In this document: positions 45,777 through 61,128 of the stretch, in pieces
Layout: each line of letters begins with the position of its first letter
Position numbering within the stretch: position 1 is the stretch's first letter
Program-made: the position numbers and the translations under genes
The notes under the pieces: generated by a model
Told to the model about the DNA's origin: nothing
Databases searched by the model: none
What the model saw: the letters and a program-made list of their open reading frames with translations, nothing else
Virus record (IMG/VR): IMGVR_UViG_3300034104_002622
Span: 1-64,000 of that record
Source of the DNA: a virus
Direction: 5' to 3' (one strand)
DNA length: 64,000 bases

Positions 45777-45855
45777 TTATTTATTTGTTTTGATTTAGTT
45801 AAGGCTAAAATATATTCGAACAGTTCGATACACTGAACGCTGCGCATCAGTGATC

Positions 45856-46059
45856 TTAGCTGTTATCCAAAGAAATCAGCAGTTTGGCGGCGCGTTCCAG
45901 TTCAGGATTGAGCCAGTCCCTCTTTTGCGGTAGATCCGTAAGGATGTTGCGAATCACATAGAGCGCATCCGCTAGGCGGTCAGCGGCTTCATTCGATGGG
46001 CGATAGACTCCCGAGCTATTGTCTCGGAGCCATTTGATTAGTTCAGCGTTTGATTTCAT
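45856..46059 (-). CDS. Cassette-borne hypothetical protein
   Basis: 67 aa; ends LDNS* inside an attC. Confidence 0.7.
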   Translation of the reverse strand: MKSNAELIKWLRDNSSGVYRPSNEAADRLADALYVIRNILTDLPQKRDWLNPELERAAKLLISLDNS

Positions 46060-46114
46060 AATTTCGGAAGATGGATAACAAGTTTGTAGAGGCGACGACG
46101 GGCAGCGTCCCCAT

Positions 46115-46354
46115 TCAGGTTGGTAGTCCTTTCCCGTCGTCGCGCCTCACATCGGCGTTAGCGGAAGATTTCAGAATGGCTTCCAGTTTCCATTTAACGT
46201 GATAGAACCAGTCCTGACTGATCCGCCCTGAGAAGGTTGCCATGTCTCCATCGTCCTCAACGTCCGAGTAGTCCAACTCGTCAAGAATCCCGAAGATCGC
46301 TAACAAGTCATGCGAGGCAACCTCTACAACGTCTTTTGGTGGATTCTGGCTCAT
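46115..46354 (-). CDS. Cassette-borne hypothetical protein
   Basis: 79 aa; starts in one attC and stops in the next. Confidence 0.65.
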   Translation of the reverse strand: MSQNPPKDVVEVASHDLLAIFGILDELDYSDVEDDGDMATFSGRISQDWFYHVKWKLEAILKSSANADVRRDDGKGLPT

Positions 46355-46641
46355 GCGTTCGGTGCCTCCATATTTGCGTTAGGCAGAATTAAATCTTCAC
46401 GTTCGCGCCAGAATGCCAGTTGTTCAGACCAATCGCCGGCAAACATCTCCAACGGATATATTTCGTCGTTTTTCCGGTGCAGTTCCCTCCATGAGGATTC
46501 AAAATCCTCAAGGGATTTGAGTTGCTCAAATATAAACTCGTCTAACGTCAAAGAATGCCGAACAAGACGTGAGACGCAATCCCCACTAGTCTCCTGTTGG
46601 GTTAGGGTTTTCTGCTTCGGTGGTGATTTATCGTTTGGCAT
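46351..46641 (-). CDS. Cassette-borne hypothetical protein
   Basis: 96 aa; starts and stops in attC loops; ATGA overlap at 46351-46354. Confidence 0.7.
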   Translation of the reverse strand: MPNDKSPPKQKTLTQQETSGDCVSRLVRHSLTLDEFIFEQLKSLEDFESSWRELHRKNDEIYPLEMFAGDWSEQLAFWREREDLILPNANMEAPNA

Positions 46642-46903
46642 GGTCTTGGGGTATAAGTGGTGGGGATGCGTCTACATTGACGTTCGTAGGTGAGAATTGC
46701 AGTTCATCCAGCATATCGCTTGGATTGTTATTTCCGTTTGCCATCGCTTCAATCCATCGCGCTGGGTCAATCGTTGCGGTGTGCTTCCATCCTTTATCTA
46801 AAAGTTTTGCTTCTACTTCTTGAAGCTCTTGGTCTGAGTAACATTTTATCATTCCATCAAGAGCGTAAATAAAAAGCATTCGATCTAATCTAATTGTTTT
46901 CAT
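46628..46903 (-). CDS. Hypothetical protein ending in attC of array 1
   Basis: Likely start MKTIRL; GWKHTATIDP motif. Confidence 0.65.
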   Translation of the reverse strand: MKTIRLDRMLFIYALDGMIKCYSDQELQEVEAKLLDKGWKHTATIDPARWIEAMANGNNNPSDMLDELQFSPTNVNVDASPPLIPQDHAKR

Positions 46904-47144
46904 GTGTTTTGGGTTTTGCTGGTAAAACATTAAATATTTCAACTACTGGCTTTCCTGTCTCTGGATGACTAATCATTTTAAACTCAACATCAAATTTTTT
47001 GATGCGTTCTCTAAAGTTATAAGCCATGTCAAAATCTGGAAACTCAACGTAAAGGTTAGAGTCGCGTTGGCTTACTTCTTCTTCAAGTCCAGAGTCTTCT
47101 AAAGCTCGCTGAAGGTAATAAGGTAAGTATTGGATGACACTCAT
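46890..47144 (-). CDS. Hypothetical protein
   Basis: 84 aa, coupled to neighbours. Confidence 0.6.
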   Translation of the reverse strand: MSVIQYLPYYLQRALEDSGLEEEVSQRDSNLYVEFPDFDMAYNFRERIKKFDVEFKMISHPETGKPVVEIFNVLPAKPKTHENN

Positions 47145-47494
47145 TTTTTAAGTTGTTTTAGGTTTTCGATGAATTGCGCTGCTTCTGTTGCTGTTACCGT
47201 AATGTTAGAGCCGGGGTCGATAGTTGTTTGTGCTCCTCCTGTCCAAGAGTTGCCTATTCGTTTAGCTGGAGAAGGCATAGACATTATCTTCCAATGGACA
47301 ACTGAGCATTCTGATACTTTCCATGAATAGGGATTACCAGCTTGCCATTCATGATAGATGGCTGATGCCGACTGTTTAAGTGACCATTCAACCACTTTAT
47401 TTTCTTTAAGTAGTTCTTGGGTGTAACGCATAGCATTTAGCCAAAGCTTCTGCTTGGCTACTTGATGCAGCGATTCGATTAGATTCACACTCAT
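47141..47494 (-). CDS. Hypothetical protein
   Basis: Likely start MSVNLI, just downstream of a GAA hairpin. Confidence 0.6.
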   Translation of the reverse strand: MSVNLIESLHQVAKQKLWLNAMRYTQELLKENKVVEWSLKQSASAIYHEWQAGNPYSWKVSECSVVHWKIMSMPSPAKRIGNSWTGGAQTTIDPGSNITVTATEAAQFIENLKQLKK

Positions 47495-47499
47495 GACAA

Positions 47500-47754
47500 T
47501 CAATCCTCTAGCCCCGAAGGGGCTTTGCGCGCTATTAGCATTGCGTCGGCGATTGAGTATGCTCCTTTGGCAACGTCGCAATTCCAGTTGTAAGACATTG
47601 CGGCTCTTCCGGACGCTACCATGATGGCAATAGCGATATTTTCACTTTGCATGGCTTGCCCAGCGAACCAGTCGCGCAGACTCATGCCGCGTAATGCGTC
47701 GTCTCTTTCGTGCATCGGGAACGCTTGCCCGCCGTTGTCTTGTGGTGTGTTCAT
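47500..47754 (-). CDS. Conserved phage hypothetical protein
   Basis: GGQAFP...GMSLRDWFAGQAM...AYSIADAML family motif. Confidence 0.8.
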   Translation of the reverse strand: MNTPQDNGGQAFPMHERDDALRGMSLRDWFAGQAMQSENIAIAIMVASGRAAMSYNWNCDVAKGAYSIADAMLIARKAPSGLED

Positions 47755-47756
47755 TT

Positions 47757-48599
47757 TTATTTTGATTCACGTTTGTATTGTTCGCAAACATCTTTGAATC
47801 CACAGAATGAATTGCAGAATGTTTTTTCACCTTTGCGAATTTCTACTGTTTGATTTGGTTTTTTGAGTTCTTCTGCTTCTGATAGCGTGTCGCATAGTTT
47901 TGAAGCTCGCTTGGCTCCGGGCGACATGATTGCGTAAACTGATGGCTTTTCCCATTGCTCTTCTGCTGTGCATGGGCGTGGTGAGCCATTATAAGCCTTC
48001 CAGTGGTCTTCTACGGTCTCTTTAATTAGCTTGGCTGCGAAGTCTTGATCATAGGGTTCTACGTAGATAGCAAAGGGTGTTTGCGGATACGTGGGGTCGA
48101 AGGTTGAGCGCATGTAGGACCAATCACGTTGAAGGTAAACAATTGAAACGTGTTCTACTTCATATCCATTTTTTTCTGCTAACCATCCATTGATTTGAAT
48201 TTGTTGGCGATGTTCTGGTTTCATTTTTTCCTGAAAACCAGCAGTGTTTTTGTAGTCGAACACTGTTTTATTTTCGTAGAAGTCTATTTGTCCTGAAATT
48301 GCAATGGTCTCTCCAAGATATGGATACTCATAGTGAAGTCGTTCTTCTGCTACTTCTCCGTTTTCAGTATCTACGTTATCTTCTAGGATGGAATGAATAG
48401 CTGTTCCCATCAAAGCATGGAACATAGTGTAGGGATTTTCTTGCTTTTCGTGGTTCTTTGCCAGCCATGTGCGTTGCGGAGGAGAGATTAACTGCGTGGT
48501 TGAAAATAAAGACTTTCCTTTTTCATACTTGTCTTTTGACAAAGCGCGAATGAACGGGCTAGGAAAGCTTTTGAGGTAGGATGCTGGTGTTTGTTTCAT
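47757..48599 (-). CDS. PD-(D/E)xK (Cas4-like) exonuclease
   Basis: GTAIHSILE, ISGQID, FDYK, QIQIN, C-terminal CxxxC-C; lies near erf. Confidence 0.85.
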   Translation of the reverse strand: MKQTPASYLKSFPSPFIRALSKDKYEKGKSLFSTTQLISPPQRTWLAKNHEKQENPYTMFHALMGTAIHSILEDNVDTENGEVAEERLHYEYPYLGETIAISGQIDFYENKTVFDYKNTAGFQEKMKPEHRQQIQINGWLAEKNGYEVEHVSIVYLQRDWSYMRSTFDPTYPQTPFAIYVEPYDQDFAAKLIKETVEDHWKAYNGSPRPCTAEEQWEKPSVYAIMSPGAKRASKLCDTLSEAEELKKPNQTVEIRKGEKTFCNSFCGFKDVCEQYKRESK

Positions 48600-48796
48600 T
48601 GTTCGATAATAGTGTATTCGTTTTTTTCGAGCAGGAATCCCGGTAATGGACCGATGAAGATCAATTCTCTTTCTTTCCAGTCAGGAATATTCATTGCGTA
48701 GACTGCCGTATAAATTTTTTGTGGATCAAGCTCTAAGTCAGTTCCTAAGAGCTTGTAAGCTTTGTCTGGTTTTACTTTGAATTTTTTGGATCTCAT
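48596..48796 (-). CDS. Hypothetical protein
   Basis: 66 aa, ATGA-coupled. Confidence 0.6.
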   Translation of the reverse strand: MRSKKFKVKPDKAYKLLGTDLELDPQKIYTAVYAMNIPDWKERELIFIGPLPGFLLEKNEYTIIEQ

Positions 48797-48800
48797 TTAT

Positions 48801-49049
48801 TTAATCTTGAGCTTCTATAATTACGTTCCAGATTGAGTCAGGTATCATATCTCTAACTGCTGTGTCTGCGTATCTTGCTAGATTTCCAGCTTCTTTCCAC
48901 TTTTTTGATTTGTAAAAAAAAAGGATTTTTCTTAGGATTTTTCTGTCTTCTGTATACATTTTTCTTATGCTTTGATCTTCATCATGCTCAGCTTGGTGAT
49001 TTTTAATGATGTGCTTAAAAAGTTTGATTGCGTTTTCATCTATTGTCAT
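48801..49049 (-). CDS. Hypothetical protein
   Basis: 82-aa ORF. Confidence 0.6.
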   Translation of the reverse strand: MTIDENAIKLFKHIIKNHQAEHDEDQSIRKMYTEDRKILRKILFFYKSKKWKEAGNLARYADTAVRDMIPDSIWNVIIEAQD

Positions 49050-49083
49050 TTTGAATTCTTTTTTTATTTAGTCAGGCTAAATT

Positions 49084-49284
49084 TTAATCGAGCACACTGC
49101 GTCCACATAGCATTATAATGGTGTAATATGGCGGGAAATCATCTCCTGCACACATTTCTATTCCCTTCAGCAACCCAAATTCAATGCAATTTGCGTTGAT
49201 GCTGTTTTTTCTGAATCCTGAATTTTTAATCAGTTTTTCCAGTTTGTTTTTTATTTCTTCTTCTGTCGGTATGTTTTTATTCAT
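49084..49284 (-). CDS. Hypothetical protein
   Basis: 66-aa ORF. Confidence 0.55.
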   Translation of the reverse strand: MNKNIPTEEEIKNKLEKLIKNSGFRKNSINANCIEFGLLKGIEMCAGDDFPPYYTIIMLCGRSVLD

Positions 49285-49331
49285 TGTGATTTTAGCGTTG
49301 ACAAATTTTTTGATTGCTTTAGGTAGCGCTC

Positions 49332-49574
49332 ATGGAAAAGAGATTCAAGAAAGTAATCACTAACCCTGCGACTGGTCGCAAGAAAACTGTGAAGTTTGGA
49401 CAGGCTGGCAAGGCTGCTGACGGTGGGGATCGCATCAGGCCGGGAACTTCTAAGGGTGACGCTTATTGCGCTCGCTCTGCTAAGATTAAAGGTGATTGGA
49501 AGTCCAATCCTAATTCGCCTAACAACCTTTCACGCCGGAAATGGAAGTGCAAAGGCAGCAAGTCTATGAAGTAA
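49332..49574 (+). CDS. Small basic phage protein
   Basis: VKFGQ...PGTSKGDAYCARS...SRRKWKC, a widespread aquatic-phage family. Confidence 0.75.
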   Translation: MEKRFKKVITNPATGRKKTVKFGQAGKAADGGDRIRPGTSKGDAYCARSAKIKGDWKSNPNSPNNLSRRKWKCKGSKSMK

Positions 49575-49600
49575 TTGCTTTCTGAATCAGAAACAGCTTT

Positions 49601-49777
49601 ATGAAAAAAAAATCTACTGTCAACTCTTCTGGTAACTACACAAAGCCTACCATGAGAAAAGCCTTGTTTAATCGCATTAAAGCTGGCACGAAAGGCGGTG
49701 ATCCCGGCGAGTGGAGCGCCAGAAAAGCTCAGCTTTTAGCTTCTGAGTATAAGAAAAAAGGCGGAGGCTACAAATAA
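49601..49777 (+). CDS. Small basic protein (58 aa; below ORF-track cutoff)
   Basis: NYTKPTMRK...GGDPGEWSARKAQLLASEYKKKGGGYK. Confidence 0.8.
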   Translation: MKKKSTVNSSGNYTKPTMRKALFNRIKAGTKGGDPGEWSARKAQLLASEYKKKGGGYK

Positions 49778-49810
49778 CAACTCTCATTAAACGTAAACTA
49801 AAATAAAAAT

Positions 49811-49972
49811 ATGAAAGCAAAACCAAAGAAAGCAATGGTGTCTCCTAAGTCTAAAAAAGCAATGTCCAAGCCAATGTTAAAAGCAGCGGCTTCGAAAAAG
49901 ATGGCCAAGAAAATGCCTAAGAGTATGGCAATGGGCATGAAGATGGGAATGCCTAGCAATATGGGATATTAA
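49811..49972 (+). CDS. Lys/Met-rich basic peptide (53 aa)
   Basis: MKAKPKKAMVSPKSKKAMSKPM... after an A-rich leader. Confidence 0.65.
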   Translation: MKAKPKKAMVSPKSKKAMSKPMLKAAASKKMAKKMPKSMAMGMKMGMPSNMGY

Positions 49973-49987
49973 TCCTATTTTGATTGA

Positions 49988-50218
49988 ATGAAAGCACCTC
50001 AACAATCCTTGAAAGATTGGACAGCCCAAAAATGGCGAACCTCTGATGGTAAGCCAAGCAAGGGCAAAAAGAGGTATTTGCCTGATTCTGCGTGGAAGTC
50101 TTTGACGGCTTCTGAAAAGGCTTCCACGAATCGGGCAAAGGCTAAGGGTAATGCTCAAGGCAAGCAGTTTGTTAAGCAACCTAAGTCGATAGCTAGAAAA
50201 ACATCAGCACACAGATGA
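49988..50218 (+). CDS. Small basic protein (DUF5872-like, tentative)
   Basis: SLKDWTAQKWRT...RYLP...GKQFVKQPK. Confidence 0.7.
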   Translation: MKAPQQSLKDWTAQKWRTSDGKPSKGKKRYLPDSAWKSLTASEKASTNRAKAKGNAQGKQFVKQPKSIARKTSAHR

Positions 50219-50847
50219 GAAACGCCAACCTACCAAAGTGTCGAGTTTACGTCCGTTGTGATGCCTTTGGTGGCAGTGAGACAGAGTTTGAACCTGCGTG
50301 GTTAGTCAGCGTCCGAGCGATGCGTAATCGTCCATTTTGTTTTCAAGTTTGGGTAGATAAATACGCTGCTTGCTTTGACAAGATTCCGCCACAGTGCATC
50401 TACCATTACGAGCCGGATGGGAATCAAGCTAACTTACCGCTTCACAAGGTGCAAATGTGGGAGTGTTTATCTGGCAGCATTGAAGTCTGGCAGAAGAGTC
50501 AGCTTTGCGATGTGCCGATGCTTGTCAACATGGGTAAGGGTTTTGCTCCGATGACTGGGCATTACTGGTTTACGATTGATTTTTTACCCGAACATCAATG
50601 TGCAGGAATACTGGACATTGGTGACGTTGAGTTGCTGGAAGAGCACAAAGAGGGAAACGTGGTAAAGTTGTCGAACGGACAGATTGCCATCTACCCAAAT
50701 AATAGGCTTAAATGGTTGCCTATAAGCCTTGTGAAAGAAGGCGCGGCAGAACGCATCCCTAGCTGGGAGGTTGCCACAAACGAGCAATGGGACGACTGGT
50801 GGCAAGACTCATCAGAAATCCTCGGAGACTCCAAGTGGGCTTACTAA
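50215..50847 (+). CDS. Conserved phage hypothetical protein
   Basis: 210 aa; YWFTIDF...EHK...NGQIAIYPNNR. Confidence 0.75.
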   Translation: MRNANLPKCRVYVRCDAFGGSETEFEPAWLVSVRAMRNRPFCFQVWVDKYAACFDKIPPQCIYHYEPDGNQANLPLHKVQMWECLSGSIEVWQKSQLCDVPMLVNMGKGFAPMTGHYWFTIDFLPEHQCAGILDIGDVELLEEHKEGNVVKLSNGQIAIYPNNRLKWLPISLVKEGAAERIPSWEVATNEQWDDWWQDSSEILGDSKWAY

Positions 50848-51043
50848 TATTTAATTGTTTAGCTTTAATTTGTAGGTCTTTTGTTGTTTTTTCCATGTGC
50901 TCAAGAAGAATGTCTTGCATCCAATATGGAGGACAGCGTCTTCCTGACCTCCAATCGTAAGCTGTTGGCATAGAGCATCCAATTTTTTCAGCAATTTGCT
51001 TAGCTGTGTATTTTGATATTTTTTGTTTGAATGTTTTTTTCAT
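50759..51043 (-). CDS. HTH DNA-binding protein
   Basis: TAKQIAEKIGCSMPTAYDWRSGRRCP, Cro-like HTH. Confidence 0.75.
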   Translation of the reverse strand: MKKTFKQKISKYTAKQIAEKIGCSMPTAYDWRSGRRCPPYWMQDILLEHMEKTTKDLQIKAKQLNISKPTWSLRGFLMSLATSRPIARLWQPPS

Positions 51044-51051
51044 GTTTTTAA

Positions 51052-52221
51052 TTACAGGTCAATTTCCAAATGAATGCTCCATGCTTTAACAAGTTCGTTC
51101 ATTAGAAATTGCTCAAAACGTCTTGATTCGTCTGAATAGCCAATTGTATGACAATGCTCTTCTAGCAGCGTGGTAATCAAAAAAAACAATCCTTGGTCAA
51201 AAGAACGTTCTGTTAAGTGGATAATTTCTGAATGAACAAAAGCGATGTTTAAGTTATCTTCATTTGAGATATATTTGATTTTTGCTTTTACGTCGTATCC
51301 CATTTTTGCCAAAAACTCTTTAGCCTTGGCTAACATCCGTTCGTGGCGCTCAGGCATTTCAATTTGATTGAACTCAGCGTCAGGCAATTGGCTGCGTATT
51401 TGGTGTTGGAGATTACTGATTAGTTTGGTGGGGGATTCTTCCCAGATTTCAGCTACAACTTCTTTCATTGTTACTCCCCACGTGCCGTAATATCCACGGT
51501 CAGCTTCCCAATTAGGTTTTTTCGCTGTAAATAAGTGTTTTAAGATAGACTTATTCGTTAGTTTTTCGATGCCTCTTTCAATAGACCGATAGACATCGTA
51601 GATATTAAAGATAGTGCGATCTTCTGTAAGTTTTACTTCATCTAGCAATTCGTAAGAATACATCGCTTCTTCGATGAAGCCTACCTTAACTCCACGATAA
51701 AATATTTCGCCATCTCCTTTGTAAATGTTGATTTTGTCGGAAGAGGCAATAGGGACGCGAGCACCTACGAAAATGTTTTCGTGATTGTCATAGCACTCTG
51801 CAAATTTTTTGTGAGTGATATAGATAGTGCTGTCTTGTATTGAAACTGGGTGGCGACCCCATTCTCCTCCTTCGTCTATTGTATTCGAAACAAGCTCACG
51901 GTAGGCTCCTTCTAGCTCCCACTGCTTTCCAAGTTCTGTTGTAAATCCAAGCTCACGATCATTGCAAGTAATTACATCAAATGTTTTTCCACGGAATTCT
52001 TTAGTTTCTTTTCCAAATTCATATATCCCATTGGGAGTGATGATGCTGACTGTTGCGTTTTCACGAATGAGAACAGCTAAGGCTAATTTCATTCCGGTTC
52101 CAAAGAAGCCAATTGGAGAATTATTATCTGGTTTAGCATTAATTCCCATAATACTCCAGCTTTCAGGGTGAAGAATGCCAGGAGTGGTAAGCATTATTGT
52201 ATTTGAACAATCTGTATTCAT
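51052..52221 (-). CDS. GHKL-like ATPase domain protein with C-terminal zincin-like motif
   Basis: IGFFGTGMKLA, RELVSNTIDE, TLLEEHCH. Confidence 0.65.
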   Translation of the reverse strand: MNTDCSNTIMLTTPGILHPESWSIMGINAKPDNNSPIGFFGTGMKLALAVLIRENATVSIITPNGIYEFGKETKEFRGKTFDVITCNDRELGFTTELGKQWELEGAYRELVSNTIDEGGEWGRHPVSIQDSTIYITHKKFAECYDNHENIFVGARVPIASSDKINIYKGDGEIFYRGVKVGFIEEAMYSYELLDEVKLTEDRTIFNIYDVYRSIERGIEKLTNKSILKHLFTAKKPNWEADRGYYGTWGVTMKEVVAEIWEESPTKLISNLQHQIRSQLPDAEFNQIEMPERHERMLAKAKEFLAKMGYDVKAKIKYISNEDNLNIAFVHSEIIHLTERSFDQGLFFLITTLLEEHCHTIGYSDESRRFEQFLMNELVKAWSIHLEIDL

Positions 52222-52306
52222 TGTTTATTTGTTTATTTGTTGTTACAAATCAACCTCAAGCCCGAAGGGCTTTAAGTTTATTGATTTATGATTTATTTGT
52301 AATTGT

Positions 52307-52438
52307 TCAGTATCTCTTTGAGCAATTAGAGCAAACGCTCTGTCCGTGCTTTGTGAAGATCAAGGGTGTTTTGCAGTCGCGGCAAAAGCCGAAGAACTTG
52401 CAGGGTTTTCTGAGGTAGTAGCGTAGTTTGCATCTCAT
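52307..52438 (-). CDS. 43-aa Zn-ribbon peptide (founder cassette, copy 1)
   Basis: MRCKLRYYLRKPCKFFGFCRDCKTPLIFTKHGQSVCSNCSKRY; paralog at 56823-56954. Confidence 0.75.
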   Translation of the reverse strand: MRCKLRYYLRKPCKFFGFCRDCKTPLIFTKHGQSVCSNCSKRY

Positions 52439-52484
52439 GGTGTTTGTTGTTGTTCAAACAGGTTGATGCACTGAACGCTTTGCG

Positions 52485-52712
52485 TCACCGATCTTGGCTG
52501 TTCGGAATAAAAACTCGCATCCAGAATGCGACGGGCTGAGACGATGTTTGTCCGCGCCACCCGAATCTTTTGCTCCATGATCCTTTGTCCCACCAACCGT
52601 CAGCGCGGATGATGACTACTTGTTCACCGTCATTCGGCAATGTTGAATCGGCAGAAAAGATTTCCGAACAATTCGTGAGAGGCAACGCCTCGGAGTTTTC
52701 TTGTGTATTCAT
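52485..52712 (-). CDS. Cassette-borne hypothetical protein
   Basis: 75 aa; LPNDGEQV...VAFWM (DUF551-like); starts and stops in attC sites. Confidence 0.65.
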   Translation of the reverse strand: MNTQENSEALPLTNCSEIFSADSTLPNDGEQVVIIRADGWWDKGSWSKRFGWRGQTSSQPVAFWMRVFIPNSQDR

Positions 52713-52748
52713 AGTCGTTAAGGGCGTGCCTCCACAGAGGCGTTCGAC

Positions 52749-52907
52749 TTACTCATAGAAGGCCAGCTTGATCTTTTGTTGTGTCACATCCAGACTCAGC
52801 AATGACCAAGAGTGCCCGGTGTTGAAGTTTTGGACATCAATGACTGAGATTCTCCAGCCACCGTCAGGCCGGATGTAGAGTTTGAAGAGTTGTATTTCGA
52901 TTTCCAT
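52749..52907 (-). CDS. Cassette-borne hypothetical protein
   Basis: Likely start MEIEIQ; stop lies just before the core site. Confidence 0.55.
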   Translation of the reverse strand: MEIEIQLFKLYIRPDGGWRISVIDVQNFNTGHSWSLLSLDVTQQKIKLAFYE

Positions 52908-52927
52908 GTTAGTGTGGTGTGTTGTCG

Positions 52928-53203
52928 TTACAAAGTCGAACAAGGCGCGGCAGATAACCGCTCTGGGCTATCTGTCGTATTTGCCACGTCCTGGGTTCGC
53001 GGTATCTGCGCTTGGGCGTTAGCCTGAAGAATAAATTTTGCCTCACGCTCAAGCTGCGGGTCGAGCCAATCCCTTTTTTGCGGAAGGTCATTGATGATTC
53101 GCCGCAAGACCGATTCGACCGATCCAGCAAATGCAATCATGTCTTCGATGGCTCGCGGCTTAGGGATGCGGCTTCGTATTTCGTCTCGTATTGGTGTATT
53201 CAT
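52928..53203 (-). CDS. Cassette-borne hypothetical protein
   Basis: 91 aa; reads completely through attC 52935-53024. Confidence 0.65.
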   Translation of the reverse strand: MNTPIRDEIRSRIPKPRAIEDMIAFAGSVESVLRRIINDLPQKRDWLDPQLEREAKFILQANAQAQIPRTQDVANTTDSPERLSAAPCSTL

Positions 53204-53258
53204 AATTCAAAGAGGCTAACAAGTGGATGCTGGCAACGGCGGGAGTTGCCCTGTTGGT

Positions 53259-53534
53259 TTATTCGGAGTCCAGCGCCCGCCGCGCCAGATCCTTGTCGTT
53301 CGGCTTAGAAAGCATGAGTAGCGTCCATGAGATTGTAACCAGCACCAAGATACCCAACGGGAGTCCGATCTTAGCGGTATTGCCTGAGTCCAGACGGGTC
53401 AGCACCGATGAGAGAAGAAAGCCCATCTGGAAGGTTACAATCAGTGTCGTGATTAGCCACGCTTTGAAACGTGCCGAACAAAGCGTAGATGGCGATTCCG
53501 AGGAATCGCTCTGTTCAAGTTTTGGGGTAGTCAT
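53259..53534 (-). CDS. Cassette-borne membrane protein (2 TM)
   Basis: Two hydrophobic helices; starts and stops in attC loops. Confidence 0.7.
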   Translation of the reverse strand: MTTPKLEQSDSSESPSTLCSARFKAWLITTLIVTFQMGFLLSSVLTRLDSGNTAKIGLPLGILVLVTISWTLLMLSKPNDKDLARRALDSE

Positions 53535-53580
53535 AATGTTTGATTGATGTTGAGAGAGTCACTGAGCCTCGGAACCGCCA

Positions 53581-53835
53581 TTACTCGACGTTCTGGCCAT
53601 ACAATGCAGACAAGATGGCATCGACGCGCCCTTGCGCTGGATCGGTTCCTTTGCGCCGGTGTTCGTGCAGATCCTCGTCCTCCATGAATGGGACTTTCAC
53701 GATGACTATCAACTCGCCCGCTTCGTCTCGGAGCCATCCCCAATCAGCATGTTTGGATCGGTCATGGGAGAGACGCCCAACCCAGCCAGAACAAGTCGTG
53801 AGAGGCAACGCCTCGGAGTTTGTTGGTGTATTCAT
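53581..53835 (-). CDS. Cassette-borne hypothetical protein
   Basis: Start MNTPTN in attC loop; DWGWLRD...EHRRKGTDP. Confidence 0.7.
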   Translation of the reverse strand: MNTPTNSEALPLTTCSGWVGRLSHDRSKHADWGWLRDEAGELIVIVKVPFMEDEDLHEHRRKGTDPAQGRVDAILSALYGQNVE

Positions 53836-53881
53836 AGTCGTTATTGGCGTGCCTCCACAAAGGCGTTGTAGCAAAGAATGC

Positions 53882-54187
53882 TCATTTGCGGCGATCTCCG
53901 AGGATTCCAAGCATGGAGGTTGTGCCGCGTTGCCGTGGCATCAAGACCCGCTCTCCGGGTTCGCCGCGATCCCCTCCGCATTGGGCGTGTGTCCCATCCT
54001 CGAATCGGGCAAGGGTCATTACATCCGTTCCCACGTATCCCCAATTCGTGCCCTCTTTGACGACCTTCCTGACGATTGCGGGTTCGTCCACGTAGTAAGG
54101 CATTACAGACATTGCCTCCAGCCCGAATCCGAAGACTGCTATTGCGGATGCGCAGAGCGCGGCGATTCCAAGGTGTTCAAGTTTCAT
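53882..54187 (-). CDS. Cassette-borne protein with N-terminal TM/signal segment
   Basis: 101 aa. Confidence 0.65.
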   Translation of the reverse strand: MKLEHLGIAALCASAIAVFGFGLEAMSVMPYYVDEPAIVRKVVKEGTNWGYVGTDVMTLARFEDGTHAQCGGDRGEPGERVLMPRQRGTTSMLGILGDRRK

Positions 54188-54262
54188 ATTTTATCGGAGT
54201 TTGAGATTGGTTCGGAAGAGCTACAACAAGCGGATCGTGGCAACCCGCTCCCGCCCGCCATT

Positions 54263-54505
54263 TTAGATTTGATCGGGCTTCACTGGTGCGGGATCGGTTG
54301 CCACATCCTCGGCGTTCTCGGATAACTTGTTGAGGGCGCGGCGGTGGTGCTTGTAGCGGTTGTCGTGGTGGCATGATCCATCGGAGCAAGTGAAGGTCAC
54401 GGGGTCGCCTACTCTTTCGAGGTGGTAACACGCCCACACTGAATGCCAGCTTCCGAGAACAAGGCGTCGCACGCCGACGCCGCGAAGTTTTGTGATGATT
54501 TTCAT
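54263..54505 (-). CDS. Cassette-borne hypothetical protein
   Basis: 80 aa; ATGA overlap inside attC 54454-54541. Confidence 0.55.
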   Translation of the reverse strand: MKIITKLRGVGVRRLVLGSWHSVWACYHLERVGDPVTFTCSDGSCHHDNRYKHHRRALNKLSENAEDVATDPAPVKPDQI

Positions 54506-54825
54506 GGTTTATTTTCGGCGCGGGTGGACTCGACGTTCGCAGAAATAAGGCCCGCGACGAGTTCGGGGACTTTCAGAGCCAGAACGTCTTCCTGTATGCT
54601 CCCATCGTCCGATGTCTTTGCTGCCTCGCCGAACATCTCCCCTATCTGGGTGACGATTCCGTGATAGAACGCCTCGTTCCGTGAGAACTGAGCGGCAGAG
54701 TCCATCCATGCGGCAATCCGCTTTGCCACGGCTTCCGCAAGGACAACGTCCATTTCAATGTGCTTGGTTTCATCGTCGCACCAGCATTGGGCGGCGATCT
54801 GTCTTGCTTCTTCGATGTATGTCAT
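54502..54825 (-). CDS. Cassette-borne conserved phage protein
   Basis: AAQCWCD...MDVVLAEA...SDDGSIQEDVLALKVPELV. Confidence 0.75.
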   Translation of the reverse strand: MTYIEEARQIAAQCWCDDETKHIEMDVVLAEAVAKRIAAWMDSAAQFSRNEAFYHGIVTQIGEMFGEAAKTSDDGSIQEDVLALKVPELVAGLISANVESTRAENKP

Positions 54826-54863
54826 AAGATAAAATTCTGCGAACAAGGCGGTCCACGGAACGG

Positions 54864-55235
54864 CTACCCGTTGGACGCTTTGGGTGAAGGTTGAGTCTCA
54901 GCCACGGGTAGCCGCGCGTGGCCTTGTTCGTTCGGGGTTAGGGATTGGAGGGCATCACAAATCATGGATTGCAGTGCCTGACGTGCAAACAGAGCTTGAT
55001 CTTCGCCTCCGCATTCTCGGCAACTTGTCCCATCCGCTATTAGACGCAGTTTCTCCGCCAGCCTGTCGCGCTGCTCGGTGACTGTCTTATTTTCCATCAT
55101 CAGGGATAAAGCGGTTGTCTCTATATTTGCATATTTGTTTTTTAGAATATCCAGTTCTTCTGCAATCTGATACCAAGATTTACCGCTAAGGCATAGAGCC
55201 TTCCATCTTTCGTTTGTGGTTGGTGTATTGTTCAT
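54864..55235 (-). CDS. Modular coiled-coil family protein; ends in attC
   Basis: QRDRLAE and QSLTP blocks. Confidence 0.7.
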   Translation of the reverse strand: MNNTPTTNERWKALCLSGKSWYQIAEELDILKNKYANIETTALSLMMENKTVTEQRDRLAEKLRLIADGTSCRECGGEDQALFARQALQSMICDALQSLTPNEQGHARLPVAETQPSPKASNG

Positions 55236-55528
55236 GCTTCCTTCGGGGTTAGGGATTGGAGGGTTGTTTCGGCAAGGTCTTTTGCTGATTGTGGGTCTTC
55301 GTGAATCAAATTGAAAACACTACAAAGATTATCCGCCAGCCTGTCCCGCTGTGCGGTGACGGTGGCGAGTTCCTCCTGTGCCTTGGCGAATCCGTAGTCC
55401 ATAAACTCGCGGGTTCGGATTGTCTCCTCCCGTGCCTCGTCCCGCTCGCGTTCTAACCTTCTGGCGAAGTCTATGCTAACTCTACCTGTCCCAAACTGGG
55501 CTTCGTCGGTTTCTGGTGTGTCGCTCAT
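55232..55528 (-). CDS. Modular coiled-coil family protein
   Basis: TPETD, ERERDEARE, QRDRLA, QSLTP blocks. Confidence 0.75.
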   Translation of the reverse strand: MSDTPETDEAQFGTGRVSIDFARRLERERDEAREETIRTREFMDYGFAKAQEELATVTAQRDRLADNLCSVFNLIHEDPQSAKDLAETTLQSLTPKEA

Positions 55529-55884
55529 TTCGCGCCCTCCAATGCTTTTTCTGCTTTGATTTGTGATCTATCCCATCCAACTCCGTAAAGGTCGCCGTGA
55601 ACTTGCCTAATGTATCGCCAGCCAGATAGCATATCGCGCAAAGCCTCCCGCGCCTTGTCCCGCTCGCGTTGCAATGTCTTAGCATGATCCCAGATAGTTC
55701 CGTTGGGGTCGCGGAGTTCGCAACCAAGGTCTTTGTTTTGTTGGATGTATTTTGCCTTCCATTCGTCGCGTTCGCGTTTGAGTTCTGCGTTGGTTTCCTT
55801 TAGGAATTGCTTGTATGCTTTTATGTCCTCTATGTTGGTTGCTTTTAACGTAGATTCGTCCGTCTCAGGTGTGTCAGTTTTCAT
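55525..55884 (-). CDS. Modular coiled-coil family protein
   Basis: TPETD and two RERD blocks. Confidence 0.75.
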   Translation of the reverse strand: MKTDTPETDESTLKATNIEDIKAYKQFLKETNAELKRERDEWKAKYIQQNKDLGCELRDPNGTIWDHAKTLQRERDKAREALRDMLSGWRYIRQVHGDLYGVGWDRSQIKAEKALEGAK

Positions 55885-56132
55885 GGCTTCTGGGTTAGGG
55901 ATTGGAGGGCTTGCTGGGCTTTTTCAAATGCTTCTGGCATGGATACTGGCATAAAATCAACGCTGTCAATACAGTTGCAAGATTCTATCAAGTCTTGTAG
56001 TGCCTCCGCCAGCCTGTCCCGCTGTGCGGTGATGGTGGAGAGTTGGTGTTTGAGTCTTGTTATGATTTGACTAATGTAACATGCGACTGCAATGATTGTA
56101 ATGGCTGGGGCAATTATGTCTAAATAGTTCAT
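55881..56132 (-). CDS. Modular family protein with N-terminal TM
   Basis: QRDRLAEAL and QSLT blocks. Confidence 0.7.
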   Translation of the reverse strand: MNYLDIIAPAITIIAVACYISQIITRLKHQLSTITAQRDRLAEALQDLIESCNCIDSVDFMPVSMPEAFEKAQQALQSLTQKP

Positions 56133-56452
56133 GGCTTATGGGTTAGGGATTGGAGGGCTTCGGTTGCAACAAATCTAGCTCCGTGACCATTATCGCATTG
56201 GAGGTCTGAGTAATCGAATGTCGTAATCATTTGCAACGCTTCCACCAGCCTGTCGCGCTCGTCTAATGTCTGTGCCAGTTTCTTGCCCATGCGCTCGTTG
56301 GCATCGTTTAGTTCTCGGCAAACACTCGACATCCTCCATTGCTCCCGTGCCTCGTCCCGCTCGCGCCTTGCTTCTTTTAAGAGTTCCCATGCAGCCAGTT
56401 CACATTGAAGGTCGTTCTCAGCATCCGTCTTAGGTGTTGGTTGTGTATTCAT
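56129..56452 (-). CDS. Modular coiled-coil family protein
   Basis: Start MNTQPTPKTD; RERDEARE, ERDRL, QSLT blocks. Confidence 0.7.
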   Translation of the reverse strand: MNTQPTPKTDAENDLQCELAAWELLKEARRERDEAREQWRMSSVCRELNDANERMGKKLAQTLDERDRLVEALQMITTFDYSDLQCDNGHGARFVATEALQSLTHKP

Positions 56453-56811
56453 GGTTCTTTGTTCGGGTTGGTTGTCCACTTTCTAATCGTGCGAAAGAAA
56501 GCTTCTGCGCGTTGGGCGGCGGTTGCGGTAATGCACATATCAAAATCCATTTGTGCTTTTGTTACTCCAGCTTCTCGGCGGATCGCTTTTTTGATTTGTT
56601 GCGTGTATTTCTTTGGGAGATTCGGGTCGCCATAAAGCATTTTCTCGGCTTCGTGCATCGCGTTTAAGTCGTTGCAGTAGTCGGGAAGCTGGTGAACGTC
56701 ACGCGATAGACGCGCTTGTGGCGGTCGCCAGTATCGAATCTGTGAATTTCCCACGTGGGAAATCCATCCGCACGACTCAGCGATGGCGATTCTTTGCGCT
56801 TTTGGTTTCAT
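56449..56811 (-). CDS. Conserved phage protein, paralog of 58387-58842
   Basis: RIAIAESCGW...LPDYCNDLNAMHEAEK...ATAAQRAEAF. Confidence 0.75.
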   Translation of the reverse strand: MKPKAQRIAIAESCGWISHVGNSQIRYWRPPQARLSRDVHQLPDYCNDLNAMHEAEKMLYGDPNLPKKYTQQIKKAIRREAGVTKAQMDFDMCITATAAQRAEAFFRTIRKWTTNPNKEP

Positions 56812-56822
56812 ATTTTTGTAGT

Positions 56823-56954
56823 TCAATATCTCTTTGAGCATCTAGGGCAGATGCCCTGTCCGTGTTTTGTGAACATCAAGGTCGCCCTGCAATCGCGGCA
56901 GAAACCGAGAAACTTGCAGAGTTTTCCGAGGTAGTATCGTAGTTTGTATTTCAT
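56823..56954 (-). CDS. 43-aa Zn-ribbon peptide (founder cassette, copy 2)
   Basis: MKYKLRYYLGKLCKFLGFCRDCRATLMFTKHGQGICPRCSKRY. Confidence 0.75.
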   Translation of the reverse strand: MKYKLRYYLGKLCKFLGFCRDCRATLMFTKHGQGICPRCSKRY

Positions 56955-57002
56955 TGTGATAATTGAATTATAATCGAACAGGTTGATGCGGTGAACGAAG
57001 CG

Positions 57003-57308
57003 TCACCGATCTTGGCTGTTCTCGGAAGAAATTTCCGCAGCCATCTTGTCCATGACAGCTTCAGCCGCCACATGCCCGCGATGTTTCAGCAGTTGCCGGA
57101 TGCGGTGCTTTAGCTTGTTTTCGCTGCGTTCGAGCGCCTTGGCGTGTTCCTCCATCTTTTCGAGGTTGTGCCAGTCTTGCCAGTTGTTCCGCTTTATCTC
57201 TTCGGAGAGAGCGGCGGTCTTGGGAGTTTCGCGGAGTCGCTCGGACAAAGAAGACCGAGAACAAGTCGCCGCACGCAACGGGCTATCACTTTTCAATTTC
57301 TTTTTCAT
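57003..57308 (-). CDS. Cassette-borne hypothetical protein
   Basis: Start MKKKLK in attC loop; ends ENSQDR* in the next attC. Confidence 0.7.
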   Translation of the reverse strand: MKKKLKSDSPLRAATCSRSSLSERLRETPKTAALSEEIKRNNWQDWHNLEKMEEHAKALERSENKLKHRIRQLLKHRGHVAAEAVMDKMAAEISSENSQDR

Positions 57309-57336
57309 GGTCGTTTCAGGTTCGCCCGTGCGTGGG

Positions 57337-57612
57337 CTAGGCGTTAGCAAGATGAAGTTTCACGTAGTCCATCGCCGCCCGTTTCGCTTTGTCCTCGGAG
57401 AGAGGTTCGTCGTTGCAGGAATTGTAAAGCGGCACACTTTTGCCTCTTGCCACCCAATACCAACCTTGCTTCCCGCTGTGTCGGCGAGAATACTCGTAGG
57501 CGTTGGCGTATTCCTCCCCTCCCATGTTGAGCGAGTGTCCGGGATGACCGCTGCATACACCCGCAAGCCCTGTCGGACGCGGATTCTTTTTCCATCTCAA
57601 TGCCTGTTTCAT
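57337..57612 (-). CDS. Cassette-borne conserved phage protein
   Basis: LRWKK...TGLAGV...GWYWVA...AKRAAMDYVK; ends LANA* in attC. Confidence 0.75.
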   Translation of the reverse strand: MKQALRWKKNPRPTGLAGVCSGHPGHSLNMGGEEYANAYEYSRRHSGKQGWYWVARGKSVPLYNSCNDEPLSEDKAKRAAMDYVKLHLANA

Positions 57613-57645
57613 ATTTGTTTGGAGTTTTGGGGTTATTCGGTTTCG

Positions 57646-57882
57646 CTAACAAATCGCCGTATCCAACGGCGGCCAGATCTTTATTTTAGTCGGCGTCCTT
57701 TCCGCCGTGGATAGGTTCGGCGTACACTTTTGGACTTCGATGCAAAGCTGTTCGTAAATCATGGTCGCTTTATAAGGGTGTAGTGTGACCCCTCGGGCTT
57801 TGAAATTCGCCACGATTCGGTGGCGTTCTTCCGAGAGAAAACGAATGAGGCTGTCCGGCTACGGGGGCGGTACTGTATTCAT
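57646..57882 (-). pseudogene. Small ORF with in-frame TAG at codon 8
   Basis: MNTVPPP*PDSLIRFLSEERHRIVANFKARG...; TAG at 57861-57859. Confidence 0.45.
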
Positions 57883-58386: not shown

Positions 58387-58842
58387 TTATTTGGAAAGAG
58401 TTTTTACGAAAGCTTCTGCGCGTTGCGCGGCGGTTGCGTCAAGTAAAGTTTCTGCATCCCATTCGTTACGATTTACTTTTCGCTTTTTTATTATGTTGGC
58501 TAAGTGGTCGTTAAAAATACTTCGGAAGCTCCAGTCCATTTCCCAAAGCACTTTTTCCGCTTCGTGCATCGCGTTGAGGTCGCTGAGGTAGTCGGGTAAG
58601 TTTTCTACAACGAAGCATTTTTCTTCTTTGCGAAAAAGCAGGGTTTTAACTGGTTCGTATCCTCCTTGGTAACTATTAAGGGAGGCGTTCCACGTTGGGA
58701 CATCGGCGTATTCACGAGTCCACCCACACGCTTCTGCTATGGCTATTCTGATCGCAGATTTGCTGTTTTGCTGGTCGATCTCTTGCTGGAGTTTGTGCTC
58801 TTTGGCCAGACCCATATCATCTTCTTCGGGGAATCCGTTCAT
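58387..58842 (-). CDS. Conserved phage protein, paralog of 56449-56811
   Basis: RIAIAEACGW...LPDYLSDLNAMHEAEK...ATAAQRAEAF. Confidence 0.75.
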   Translation of the reverse strand: MNGFPEEDDMGLAKEHKLQQEIDQQNSKSAIRIAIAEACGWTREYADVPTWNASLNSYQGGYEPVKTLLFRKEEKCFVVENLPDYLSDLNAMHEAEKVLWEMDWSFRSIFNDHLANIIKKRKVNRNEWDAETLLDATAAQRAEAFVKTLSK

Positions 58843-60148: not shown

Positions 60149-60688
60149 TTACCTATTGGTAAGAGTTCTGTATTTTCCGGTTTTTGACAATTGGTAAGAT
60201 AGTGATGAAGGGCTAATTCCGTATTTTAATTTTAGTTTTTTGTATCCGAGTCCAGCTTTGTGATCTGCTCGAACTTCCGCCCATGTTTCATCTGTGTGAC
60301 GGCTTGCTGATCTTGATGCTTTTTGTGCGTGAAGTCTTCTTTCTTTTGGGCATCTATCCATTGCATTTTCCGATCCTGTTCCTAAGCGGATGTTTTGAGG
60401 AGTGTTATTTAGGGAGTTCCCATCAAGATGTCTTGTGTGTATGGAATTTTTTAAAGCATCTTCGCCAAATAGCTGAAAAGCTAGTAGTCGATGCACTTTT
60501 ACTGGGTAGCGTTTGGAATTACCTATTCCTACGTTGAAAACATAATACGGGATTGGGTTTTGTCCTGTTCCTGATTTTGTGATTTGTAGTTTTCGGGTTT
60601 TTCCTATTGCATTGCATACACTTCCATCATTCATTACTCGATAGCCTTTCTTGAACGCTATTCTGATTGCTTCTTTTGTTTTAGACAT
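60149..60688 (-). CDS. Free-standing HNH homing endonuclease
   Basis: VHRLLA...RHLDGNSLNN...N...N plus C-terminal HTH; likely start MSKTKE. Confidence 0.85.
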   Translation of the reverse strand: MSKTKEAIRIAFKKGYRVMNDGSVCNAIGKTRKLQITKSGTGQNPIPYYVFNVGIGNSKRYPVKVHRLLAFQLFGEDALKNSIHTRHLDGNSLNNTPQNIRLGTGSENAMDRCPKERRLHAQKASRSASRHTDETWAEVRADHKAGLGYKKLKLKYGISPSSLSYQLSKTGKYRTLTNR

Positions 60689-60736
60689 GTTCAAACTTAC
60701 TTGATTAAGGGTTTGATGCAAGTCTTAATTTGGAAC

Positions 60737-61128
60737 TGGAGCTGGCGGGAGTCGAACCCGCGTCCACAACACTGTTAAATACATTTTCTACAAGCTTAGT
60801 CCTTTCGGACATTGGGGACGCTGGTTAGGCGACCTTCCACCACTCAGTTTTTACGCCGCTGAGTTGCGTTGTTTGCCTTACTGTTTCAGGTCATCCGCCC
60901 GAAGGCACGGCGTAGGATGATCTTACCCGGTTTGTTTCCCTTCGTAGAGCGAGCGTTTCGGAGGGCGTGTTTTGCTTAGGCTACGAGAGCAACTGTGTTG
61001 CTTCCGAAGTTTCCGCGAATGACGTTGTTGCCATTTGTTTGTTTTGAGCGGCTTATTAAAGAGGCCAGCCGATCAACCTCTACTTGCTTATGTATCCTAT
61101 CGCGTTGTGTCGAAACCATTACAGCCCC
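60737..61128 (-). ncRNA. ssrA: tmRNA (392 nt), tag (A)GNNVIRGNFGSNTVALVA
   Basis: 5' GGGGCTGTAATGGTTTCGAC; 3' GGACGCGGGTTCGACTCCCGCCAGCTCCA with G3-U70 acceptor pair; tag ORF 61032-60976; CCA not encoded. Confidence 0.95.

Follow-up and report, generated by a model that had tools for sequence, protein, structure and literature searches.

Integron biology rests on the assumption that promoterless cassette genes lie on the top strand, where they are expressed from the cassette promoter (Pc), and that the strand choice of the integrase guarantees this orientation. The locus described here raises the question of how cassette genes can be exchanged and still be terminated when they lie on the other strand and lack stop codons of their own. 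The window under study comprises 64,000 nucleotides (nt) and forms the first 64 kb of the 73,283-bp virus record IMGVR_UViG_3300034104_002622, which CheckV rates as complete; the two ends of the record overlap by about 115 nt with one mismatch, and the record is therefore a complete, circularly permuted phage genome. Within it, hairpins with the structure of integron attC sites are linked to small open reading frames (ORFs) that run inverted to the sites, have no stop, and cross the recombination point in one fixed frame. The original prediction, made from the letters alone, had described these inverted, stop-less, fixed-frame cassettes, and our analysis confirmed that the observation is real; related genomes further revealed turnover at the GTT cores and exchange of C-terminal tails. 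The likely explanation, in our judgment, is that these are integron-type cassettes in an inverted layout, present as clusters of attC sites lacking integron-integrases (CALINs) among the early genes of a lake phage that has no integrase, with termination provided by the attC of the neighbor.

Sixteen attC-like hairpins were re-derived from the sequence, all with the top strand on the plus strand and with no intI nearby: four in array 1 (45815-46688) and 12 in array 2 (52453-57728). Fifteen combine an R'' AAC with an R' GTT, and the sixteenth has a GTA core. The region 45856-57612 had been framed as a single stretch; its sites are real, but they are split into two arrays by 5.8 kb of conserved phage backbone. 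Folding revealed a shared architecture consisting of AAC, a 5-nt spacer, 3 bp, a bulge, 6 bp, a second bulge (usually A), a stem with a variable loop, a 5-6-nt spacer, and GTT, in which both bulged bases lie on the 5' arm of the plus strand. A structure-only descriptor, which required 3 bp, a bulge, and 4 bp or more together with spacers of 4-6 nt and 5-7 nt, detected 11 of the 16 sites at a score of at least 9, all on the plus strand. These 11 strict hits compare with 0.86 in 50 shuffles; the minus strand gave three hits (0.46 in shuffles), none within the arrays. An earlier scanner, which demanded 6/7 complementary R-box bases, had missed nearly every site. The short attCs (52-54 nt; sites 1, 5, and 14) open the arrays and are part of the conserved backbone, and an array ends where the 3' end of a backbone gene meets the last GTT. 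The sites are listed below; in protein tails, a vertical line marks the recombination point and an asterisk the stop.

45815..45868, plus: site 1, R'' AAC 45819, R' core 45862; found by fold and descriptor; short type (54 nt); left-hand docking site of array 1, adjoining the ERF gene; incoming ORF ends N|S*
46073..46163, plus: site 2, R'' AAC 46077, R' core 46157; found by fold, descriptor, and covariance model; tail NADVRRDDGKGLPT*
46298..46384, plus: site 3, R'' AAC 46302, R' core 46378; ATGA overlap in the loop at 46351-46354
46557..46688, plus: site 4, R'' AAC 46561, R' core 46682; last site of array 1; GTT joins backbone gene 46628..46942
52453..52506, plus: site 5, R'' AAC 52457, R' core 52500; short type; docking site of array 2 in the conserved backbone; tail NSQDR*
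52663..52748, plus: site 6, R'' AAC 52667, R' core 52742; 91% identical to site 10 (repeat family D5); loop starts gene 52485..52712
52935..53024, plus: site 7, R'' AAC 52939, R' core 53018; ORF 52928..53203 reads through the whole site
53214..53304, plus: site 8, R'' AAC 53218, R' core 53298; found by fold and covariance model
53473..53596, plus: site 9, R'' AAC 53477, R' core 53590; found by descriptor; fold z-score -4.0; tail NVE*; loop starts gene 53259..53534
53786..53871, plus: site 10, R'' AAC 53790, R' core 53865; loop starts gene 53581..53835
54221..54320, plus: site 11, R'' AAC 54225, R' core 54314; found by fold, descriptor, and covariance model
54454..54541, plus: site 12, R'' AAC 54458, R' core 54535; ATGA overlap at 54502-54505
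54838..54936, plus: site 13, R'' AAC 54842, R' core 54930; GTT meets the LQSL paralogue block at its first gene
56973..57024, plus: site 14, R'' AAC 56977, R' core 57018; short type; copy of site 5 with a zinc-ribbon gene (repeat families D1, D14, and D16)
57256..57349, plus: site 15, R'' AAC 57260, R' core 57343; loop starts gene 57003..57308
57644..57728, plus: site 16, R'' AAC 57648, R' core 57722; GTA instead of GTT; right end of array 2; 56 bits

The genes of the arrays could then be placed relative to these sites. All cassette ORFs lie on the minus strand, as follows.

45856..46059, 46115..46354, and 46351..46641, minus: cassette genes of array 1, without a stop of their own, ending in the next attC
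46628..46942, minus: backbone gene crossing the site 4 GTT with its C-terminus; tail differs between the window and a sister phage
52485..52712, 52749..52943, 52928..53203, and 53259..53534, minus: cassette genes of the left part of array 2, from the ORF list
53581..53835, 53882..54187, 54263..54505, and 54502..54846, minus: further cassette genes of the left part of array 2, from the ORF list
54864..56954, minus: seven genes without attC between them (attC-free stretch 54937-56972), comprising five LQSL-type paralogues, one zinc-ribbon gene, and one paralogue of backbone gene 58387..58842
57003..57308 and 57337..57612, minus: cassette genes of the right part of array 2, from the ORF list

At 13 of the 15 GTT cores, a long minus-strand ORF crosses the core with AAC (Asn) in frame, which corresponds to a binomial P of 3.1e-5 for 13/15 or more at a chance of 1/3. 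The tails read at these junctions were LDN|S*, SAN|ADV, LPN|ANM, PTN|VNV, IPN|SQDR*, QAN|AQA, KPN|DKD, GQN|VE*, SEN|AED, SAN|VES, TPN|EQG, SEN|SQDR*, and LAN|A*. Both exceptions have their own stop just before the core: ORF 52749..52943, entering site 6, ends with TAA at 52749, and ORF 53882..54187, entering site 10, ends with TGA at 53882. Of the 13 crossing ORFs, 12 meet their stop within the attC, and the remaining one, 52928..53203, continues through the whole of site 7. The start codons of seven genes lie in attC loops (46354, 46641, 52712, 53534, 53835, 54505, and 57308), twice with a stop/start overlap of the form ATGA (46351-46354 and 54502-54505). On strand, frame, tails, stops, and starts, the re-derivation thus agreed with the original prediction in every particular. 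Five cores read TAAC, so that a context-free TAA stop would be possible in another frame; none of the five (0/5) uses it, suggesting that entry into the hairpin may be what is selected for. The products of the cassettes matched no family: 20 ORFs gave nothing above the cut-off in Pfam, 10 gave nothing in PHROGs, and the genes of array 1 had no family in either.

Because the R boxes are symmetric, the orientation of such a site is set by the asymmetry of bulges and spacers alone. In integron attCs, the extrahelical bases are described as lying near L'', and the bottom strand as being cleaved in the AAC of R' (Nivina 2016, PMC5027507). The attC of aadA1 from plasmid R100, taken on the gene-sense strand, showed the same layout as the window sites and the same descriptor parameters (5, 6, 6, 6). 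A covariance model built on the plus strand of 12 window sites (R1) matched the aadA1 attC with 26 bits and the blaIMP-1 attC with 21 bits, in both cases on the gene-sense strand only. When the descriptor was applied to four class 1 arrays, its four strong hits were all gene-sense and followed cassette genes closely; it also gave three weak hits (score 8-9) on the opposite strand, which lay within or overlapped annotated resistance-gene features. With the same bulge geometry as real attCs on their gene-sense strand, the plus strand of the window is the attC top strand, which places the genes on the recombinogenic bottom strand and reverses the canonical cassette. All cassette genes occupy the bottom strand, and the linked attC stands at the 5' end of its gene. 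By the same test, the array of the Tetrasphaera phage TJE1 was canonical, with three gene-sense hairpins placed at the 3' ends of orf1-3. The claim that the cassettes are inverted relative to the gene-then-attC order was therefore borne out against both class 1 attCs and a canonical phage array.

The same arrangement was found beyond the window. A 29-mer of the attC type of sites 6 and 10 occurred in 12 viral contigs and 21 metagenome contigs, and the covariance model located 26 further attCs in 11 viral loci and 34 in 15 of the 21 metagenome loci; in every locus, all attC hits were on one strand. To extend the frame count, we used 62 sites with a GTT core and enough flank, from which exact duplicates had been removed (the window contributed 15, and 21 other loci the remaining 47), and scored the longest open frame of at least 50 codons reaching the core on the bottom strand. 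The AAC frame was the longest at 49/62 sites in 22 loci, another frame at eight, and none at five, although these counts come from an open-run heuristic applied to sites of common ancestry that were retrieved with a single attC type; the sites are not independent, and the counts suggest more independence than there is. Outside the window, the AAC frame was the longest at 37/47 sites. A frame-0 stop fell inside the attC at 45 of the 49 sites. An ORF of at least 45 codons started with ATG inside the attC in 46 of the 60 sites with enough left flank, and no more than 40 nt beyond it in 10; the frame-0 stop was within 20 nt of this ATG in 35/46, with 16 ATGA overlaps.

We then compared the window with a sister phage, G001 (70.6 kb), whose backbone is 94-99% identical and whose cassette content is different. 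Homology breaks at attC cores (45822, 46157, 46676-46682, and 52502-52507); at site 4 it resumes at 46676-46682, and at site 5 the homology of the backbone ends at 52502-52507. The segment 46157-46349, consisting of gene 46115..46354 and the 5' part of the attC of site 3, is present in G001 with 99% identity in the other array, directly behind a different, short attC. The junction of this segment is at G|TT, with identical sequence to the right and unrelated sequence to the left. In a second cassette, common to G001 and locus L021, homology also begins at GTT. Because both shared cassettes begin their homology at GTT, the attC that travels with a gene is the one at its 5' end, which is what an inverted layout predicts. 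In four lake metagenomes, contigs part from the window immediately behind GTT cores (53302, 53304, and 53867), and the match of one contig to the window begins at 54926, in site 13. Comparative junctions and population breakpoints at the cores are thus consistent with G|TT as the recombination point, while not every junction lies at a core. At the left end of array 1, the homology of G001 (L011) stops at the R'' AAC of site 1 (45815-45822) and not at GTT, and G001 has some 370 nt without relation to the window at this point, behind which a minimal AAC..GTT remnant lies.

If genes are completed by whichever attC lies downstream, the same cassette should carry different tails in different genomes, and three such pairs were found. 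The protein of gene 46115..46354 ends in N|ADVRRDDGKGLPT* in the window and in N|S* in G001, that of the backbone gene 46628..46942 ends in N|VNVDASPPLIPQDHAKR* in the window and in N|AIGKARADNAT* in G001, and a membrane-protein gene common to G001 and L021 has the two endings N|ITITK* and N|VDVMASLPNAKHTHPPTQNHE*. Among 5.8 billion proteins searched, there were 12 relatives of the 46115..46354 protein, one of them 98% identical in the body; the junction Asn was invariant in 13/13 sequences (the 12 relatives and the query) and was followed by 12 unrelated tails. For 54502..54846, 157 relatives were found, the best 120 of which were aligned; the four closest (87-100% identity) share the sequence ..LISAN and continue with four unrelated tails, and many of the more distant relatives stop near that point. 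The predicted exchange of tails at AA|C was thereby substantiated by the three pairs and by the invariant Asn.

The mechanism that we propose on this basis is as follows. A cassette begins with the TT of one GTT core and ends with the G of the following core; its gene lies on the attC bottom strand, and its own attC stands at the 5' end of the gene, where it often gives the start codon and the first residues. The stop-less gene ends in ...AA|C at the recombination point, and ribosomes would cross AA|C into the 5' arm of the hairpin of the downstream cassette or of the docking site. That hairpin would supply a short tail and a stop codon, in most cases only a few bases away from where the next gene starts. 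At sites 3, 6, and 10, GGAGG lies in an arm predicted to be paired, and an upstream ribosome entering the hairpin could open it for re-initiation. Because the AA|C frame is the same throughout, any order of cassettes would give terminated genes placed for translational coupling. From these features we infer translation and coupling of the ORFs, which would make insertion non-polar. The recombination itself would presumably be carried out by a host integron integrase.

Several observations weigh against this explanation, in addition to the dependence among the sites of the wider frame count. Searches with TIGR02249, PF00589, PF00239, and PF01797 detected no tyrosine or serine recombinase and no Y1 transposase in the window phage or G001 (TIGR02249 and PF00589 gave 0 candidates in both), and neither intI nor attI nor Pc was found; tblastn with IntI1 against 273 kb of related loci identified no IntI (best E-value 1.1). 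As an exact word, the 29-mer of the site 6/10 attC type was absent from 185,579 representative bacterial and archaeal genomes, so that no donor integron was found; a 20-mer hit one Bacteroidetes contig, which has no attC there (best 10.8 bits), and is a chance match. Two contig joints start at 52505 and 53300, with a shorter side of only 24 letters each. One 7.5-kb lake contig lacks 1123 nt (52672-53796) between sites 6 and 10, and the joint of this deletion lies within 26 nt common to the 5' arms of both sites; repeated attCs are therefore also substrates for homologous recombination. The cassette common to G001 and L021 has its right end in the loop and not at the R' core. In a survey of homology ends at other loci, 37/40 were far from attCs detected by the model (16/19 on the left and 21/21 on the right), although the model misses short sites. 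Some junctions thus look, from their sequence, like products of homologous recombination. Finally, the plus strand is also open for at least 50 codons at 35/57 sites, compared with 52/57 for the minus strand, so ORF length does not settle the strand.

These points bear directly on the alternatives. The hairpins might be phage linker elements, comparable to the promoter-early stem-loops (PeSLs) of T4-type phages, that are shuffled by phage homologous or single-strand-annealing recombination with no integron integrase involved. An ERF recombinase and an exonuclease are encoded beside array 1, shuffling mediated by PeSLs is documented (PMC2839356, PMC4122927), and the phage has no site-specific recombinase; the population variant joined within bases common to two 91%-identical attCs, the absence of this attC family from bacterial genomes in the exact-word scan, and a sigma-70-like promoter that overlaps short site 14 also fit this explanation. 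We nevertheless regard it as unlikely, because the two shared cassettes are joined at GTT to left-hand sequences that are unrelated between genomes and because the attCs, with a mean column identity of 44%, are too dissimilar for homology-driven exchange. Their bulge geometry agrees with that of IntI substrates, whereas homologous recombination offers no evident use for it, and IntI1 is reported to have recombined 5/6 attCs tested from other lytic phages (Qi et al. 2023, PMC9892861). Promoter-like sites were not enriched (11 found versus 17.1 expected); the single overlap with a hairpin is that at short site 14, and the long attCs had no match, so that the early promoter joined to a stem-loop terminator that characterizes a PeSL is not seen at these hairpins.

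It is considerably less probable that the hairpins are primarily RNA elements for translational coupling or stability of an early operon, with a convergent likeness to attC and with variable content due to ordinary mosaicism. The bottom strand is the mRNA sense strand, its predicted RNA fold is better than that of shuffles at 11/12 sites (z-scores -2 to -5.4), and starts lie in loops with stops adjoining. Convergence would, however, have to arrive at the same AAC/GTT cores, at spacers of 5/6 nt, and at the 3 bp-bulge-6 bp-bulge layout, and breakpoints fall at GTT; an RNA role is compatible with inverted integron-type cassettes and does not replace them. Least credible of all is that the orientation was misjudged, so that the minus-strand ORFs are not genes or the cassettes are canonical with their own attC after them. 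The R boxes alone are symmetric, and long plus-strand ORFs exist at those 35/57 sites (for example, 53540..54325). The asymmetry of bulges and spacers, however, matches real attCs on the gene-sense strand, and the cross-genome linkage of the attC to the 5' end of the gene contradicts this alternative. Because ORF length fails to discriminate, the strand call rests on homology and substitution patterns, which also contradict it. In a cassette found at 90% identity in two contigs, 14/23 substitutions fall on third positions of the AAC frame, with 8/81 residue changes and no stops, whereas the other five frames would have 12-21 changes and contain stops. The cassette proteins of 52928..53203 and 45856..46059 are paralogues (E 4e-13), and minus-strand ORFs have protein-level relatives in other loci despite diverged DNA.

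Returning to inverted integron-type cassettes, a broader reading is that freshwater phages keep their own pool of them with a shared grammar, in which the attC would be a plug-and-play junction and exchange would proceed via hijacked host integrases or an unrecognized recombinase. We put this forward tentatively, as a possibility that we would not yet favor. If it is true, accessory genes of early operons could be swapped between phages with translation intact, and every swap would rewrite C-termini. With respect to the activity of an integrase, placement of the bottom strand on the lagging template is described as favoring excision (PMC13108822). The GC skew on the plus strand is positive across 13-64 kb. 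Gene 51052..52221 (minus strand, 389 aa) occupies an intI-like position left of array 2; it belongs to phrog_8203, a family without an assigned function, has 2703 representatives in the 50% library, and contains invariant GxFGxGxK and RE..N..DEgG motifs. As a recombinase this candidate was rejected: its structural model (pLDDT 94) gave weak matches to Hsp90/TRAP1 (GHKL ATPase; E 3e-6, TM 0.2-0.3), pointing to an Hsp90/GHKL-like fold.

Further features were recorded in and around the arrays. At 54864-56479 (minus strand), the five tandem paralogues have a C-terminal ..LQSLT motif and internal repeats (families D3, D4, and D9); they follow one another through ATGA-type overlaps without intervening attCs, diverged copies are present in G001 and L023, and metagenome contigs show joints among them that go back. 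Beside the GTA-core site 16 and the backbone, an apparent truncated start of an LQSL-type gene (MNTVPPP*) was found at 57722-57878, which may reflect insertion at a secondary site. The zinc-ribbon gene and its short attC are duplicated with 81% identity (52305-52506 and 56821-57024). The sigma-70-like promoter at site 14 (10/12; minus strand, 56995-56967) points into the zinc-ribbon gene.

Both arrays are part of a minus-strand gene block from about 33 to 65 kb whose products include a primase/helicase, the ERF recombinase, and the exonuclease, the latter two encoded next to array 1. A megablast of 20 kb against 50,697 phage records gave no match to known phages. The structural half of the 73-kb phage includes one ORF of 5353 codons (16843-32904, plus strand). 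Within the minus-strand early block, one plus-strand gene (50215-50847) matches a PHROG whose annotation is ferredoxin (host-takeover category). At 47144-47753, a module is swapped between the window and G001 (609 nt versus 982 nt), with edges at gene starts and stops and no attC; this exchange is ordinary phage mosaicism beside the cassette system. A full-length transfer-messenger RNA (tmRNA; 60734-61128, minus strand, 137 bits) with the tag peptide GNNVIRGNFGSNTVALVA is directly adjoined by an HNH endonuclease gene (60149..60721, minus strand). This tmRNA was the only match in an Rfam search, in which no family covered the hairpins.

How the locus relates to known systems can now be stated. 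It shares with the attCs of bacterial integrons (class 1: aadA1, aac(6')-IIc, aac(6')-Ib-cr, and blaIMP-1) the AAC/GTT cores, the 5- and 6-nt spacers, the variable loop, and a pair of bulged bases separated by 6 bp on the L'' arm, as well as cassette boundaries at G|TT and co-orientation of the sites in each array. In contrast to bacterial integrons, the phage has its genes on the bottom strand, the attC before its gene, and stop-less ORFs ending in the attC of the neighbor, and it has no intI, attI, or Pc. Inverted cassettes of chromosomal integrons, such as those encoding toxin-antitoxin systems, also carry a gene antisense to the direction of the array. Such cassettes are a minority and are self-contained, each bringing a promoter and a stop of its own; in the present phage, inversion extends to the entire array, and termination of the genes depends on their neighbors.

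Clusters of attC in virulent phages have been reported, with 17 in 10,705 genomes (Qi et al. 2023, PMC9892861). These CALINs likewise lack an integrase, occur in lytic phages, and carry small, mostly unknown genes; as described there, the arrays have 2-4 attCs and that of TJE1 is typical, whereas the present phage has 16, all inverted and with a fixed crossing frame. In class 1 integrons, ORF-11 of attI1, a short ORF across the recombination junction with translational coupling at the attI1/cassette boundary, is a precedent for coupling across a junction (PMC8876359). That case, as reported, concerns one fixed ORF at attI, whereas here every cassette gene crosses and the protein varies with its neighbor. 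The PeSLs of T4-type phages resemble the present hairpins in being repeated stem-loops that flank small variable genes in plastic regions of close relatives (PMC2839356, PMC4122927); PeSLs are described as promoter and terminator motifs exchanged by homology, whereas the hairpins here have attC anatomy, no enriched promoters, and GTT junctions. In the literature consulted on integrons and PeSLs, no whole arrays on the bottom strand, stop-less ORFs ending in the attC of a neighbor, or fixed core frame were found, and the orientations of the other 14 arrays of Qi et al. may bear on this point. The earlier statement that the design had not been described is therefore to be divided: phage attC arrays as such are already known (PMC9892861), and the inverted, stop-less, fixed-frame organization appears to be new.

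If the explanation favored here is true, phages would have a dedicated cassette economy for fast-evolving early genes, a likely home of host-takeover and anti-defense functions, and gene callers and integron finders should look for bottom-strand cassette ORFs in phage attC arrays. The recombination site would then have a second job as a translational junction, and site-specific recombination would be a routine source of C-terminal protein variation. Compared with the integrons of bacteria, this family of lytic-phage arrays uses the opposite layout, in which expression would be solved by reading across the recombination point in one frame and ending in the hairpin of the neighbor.

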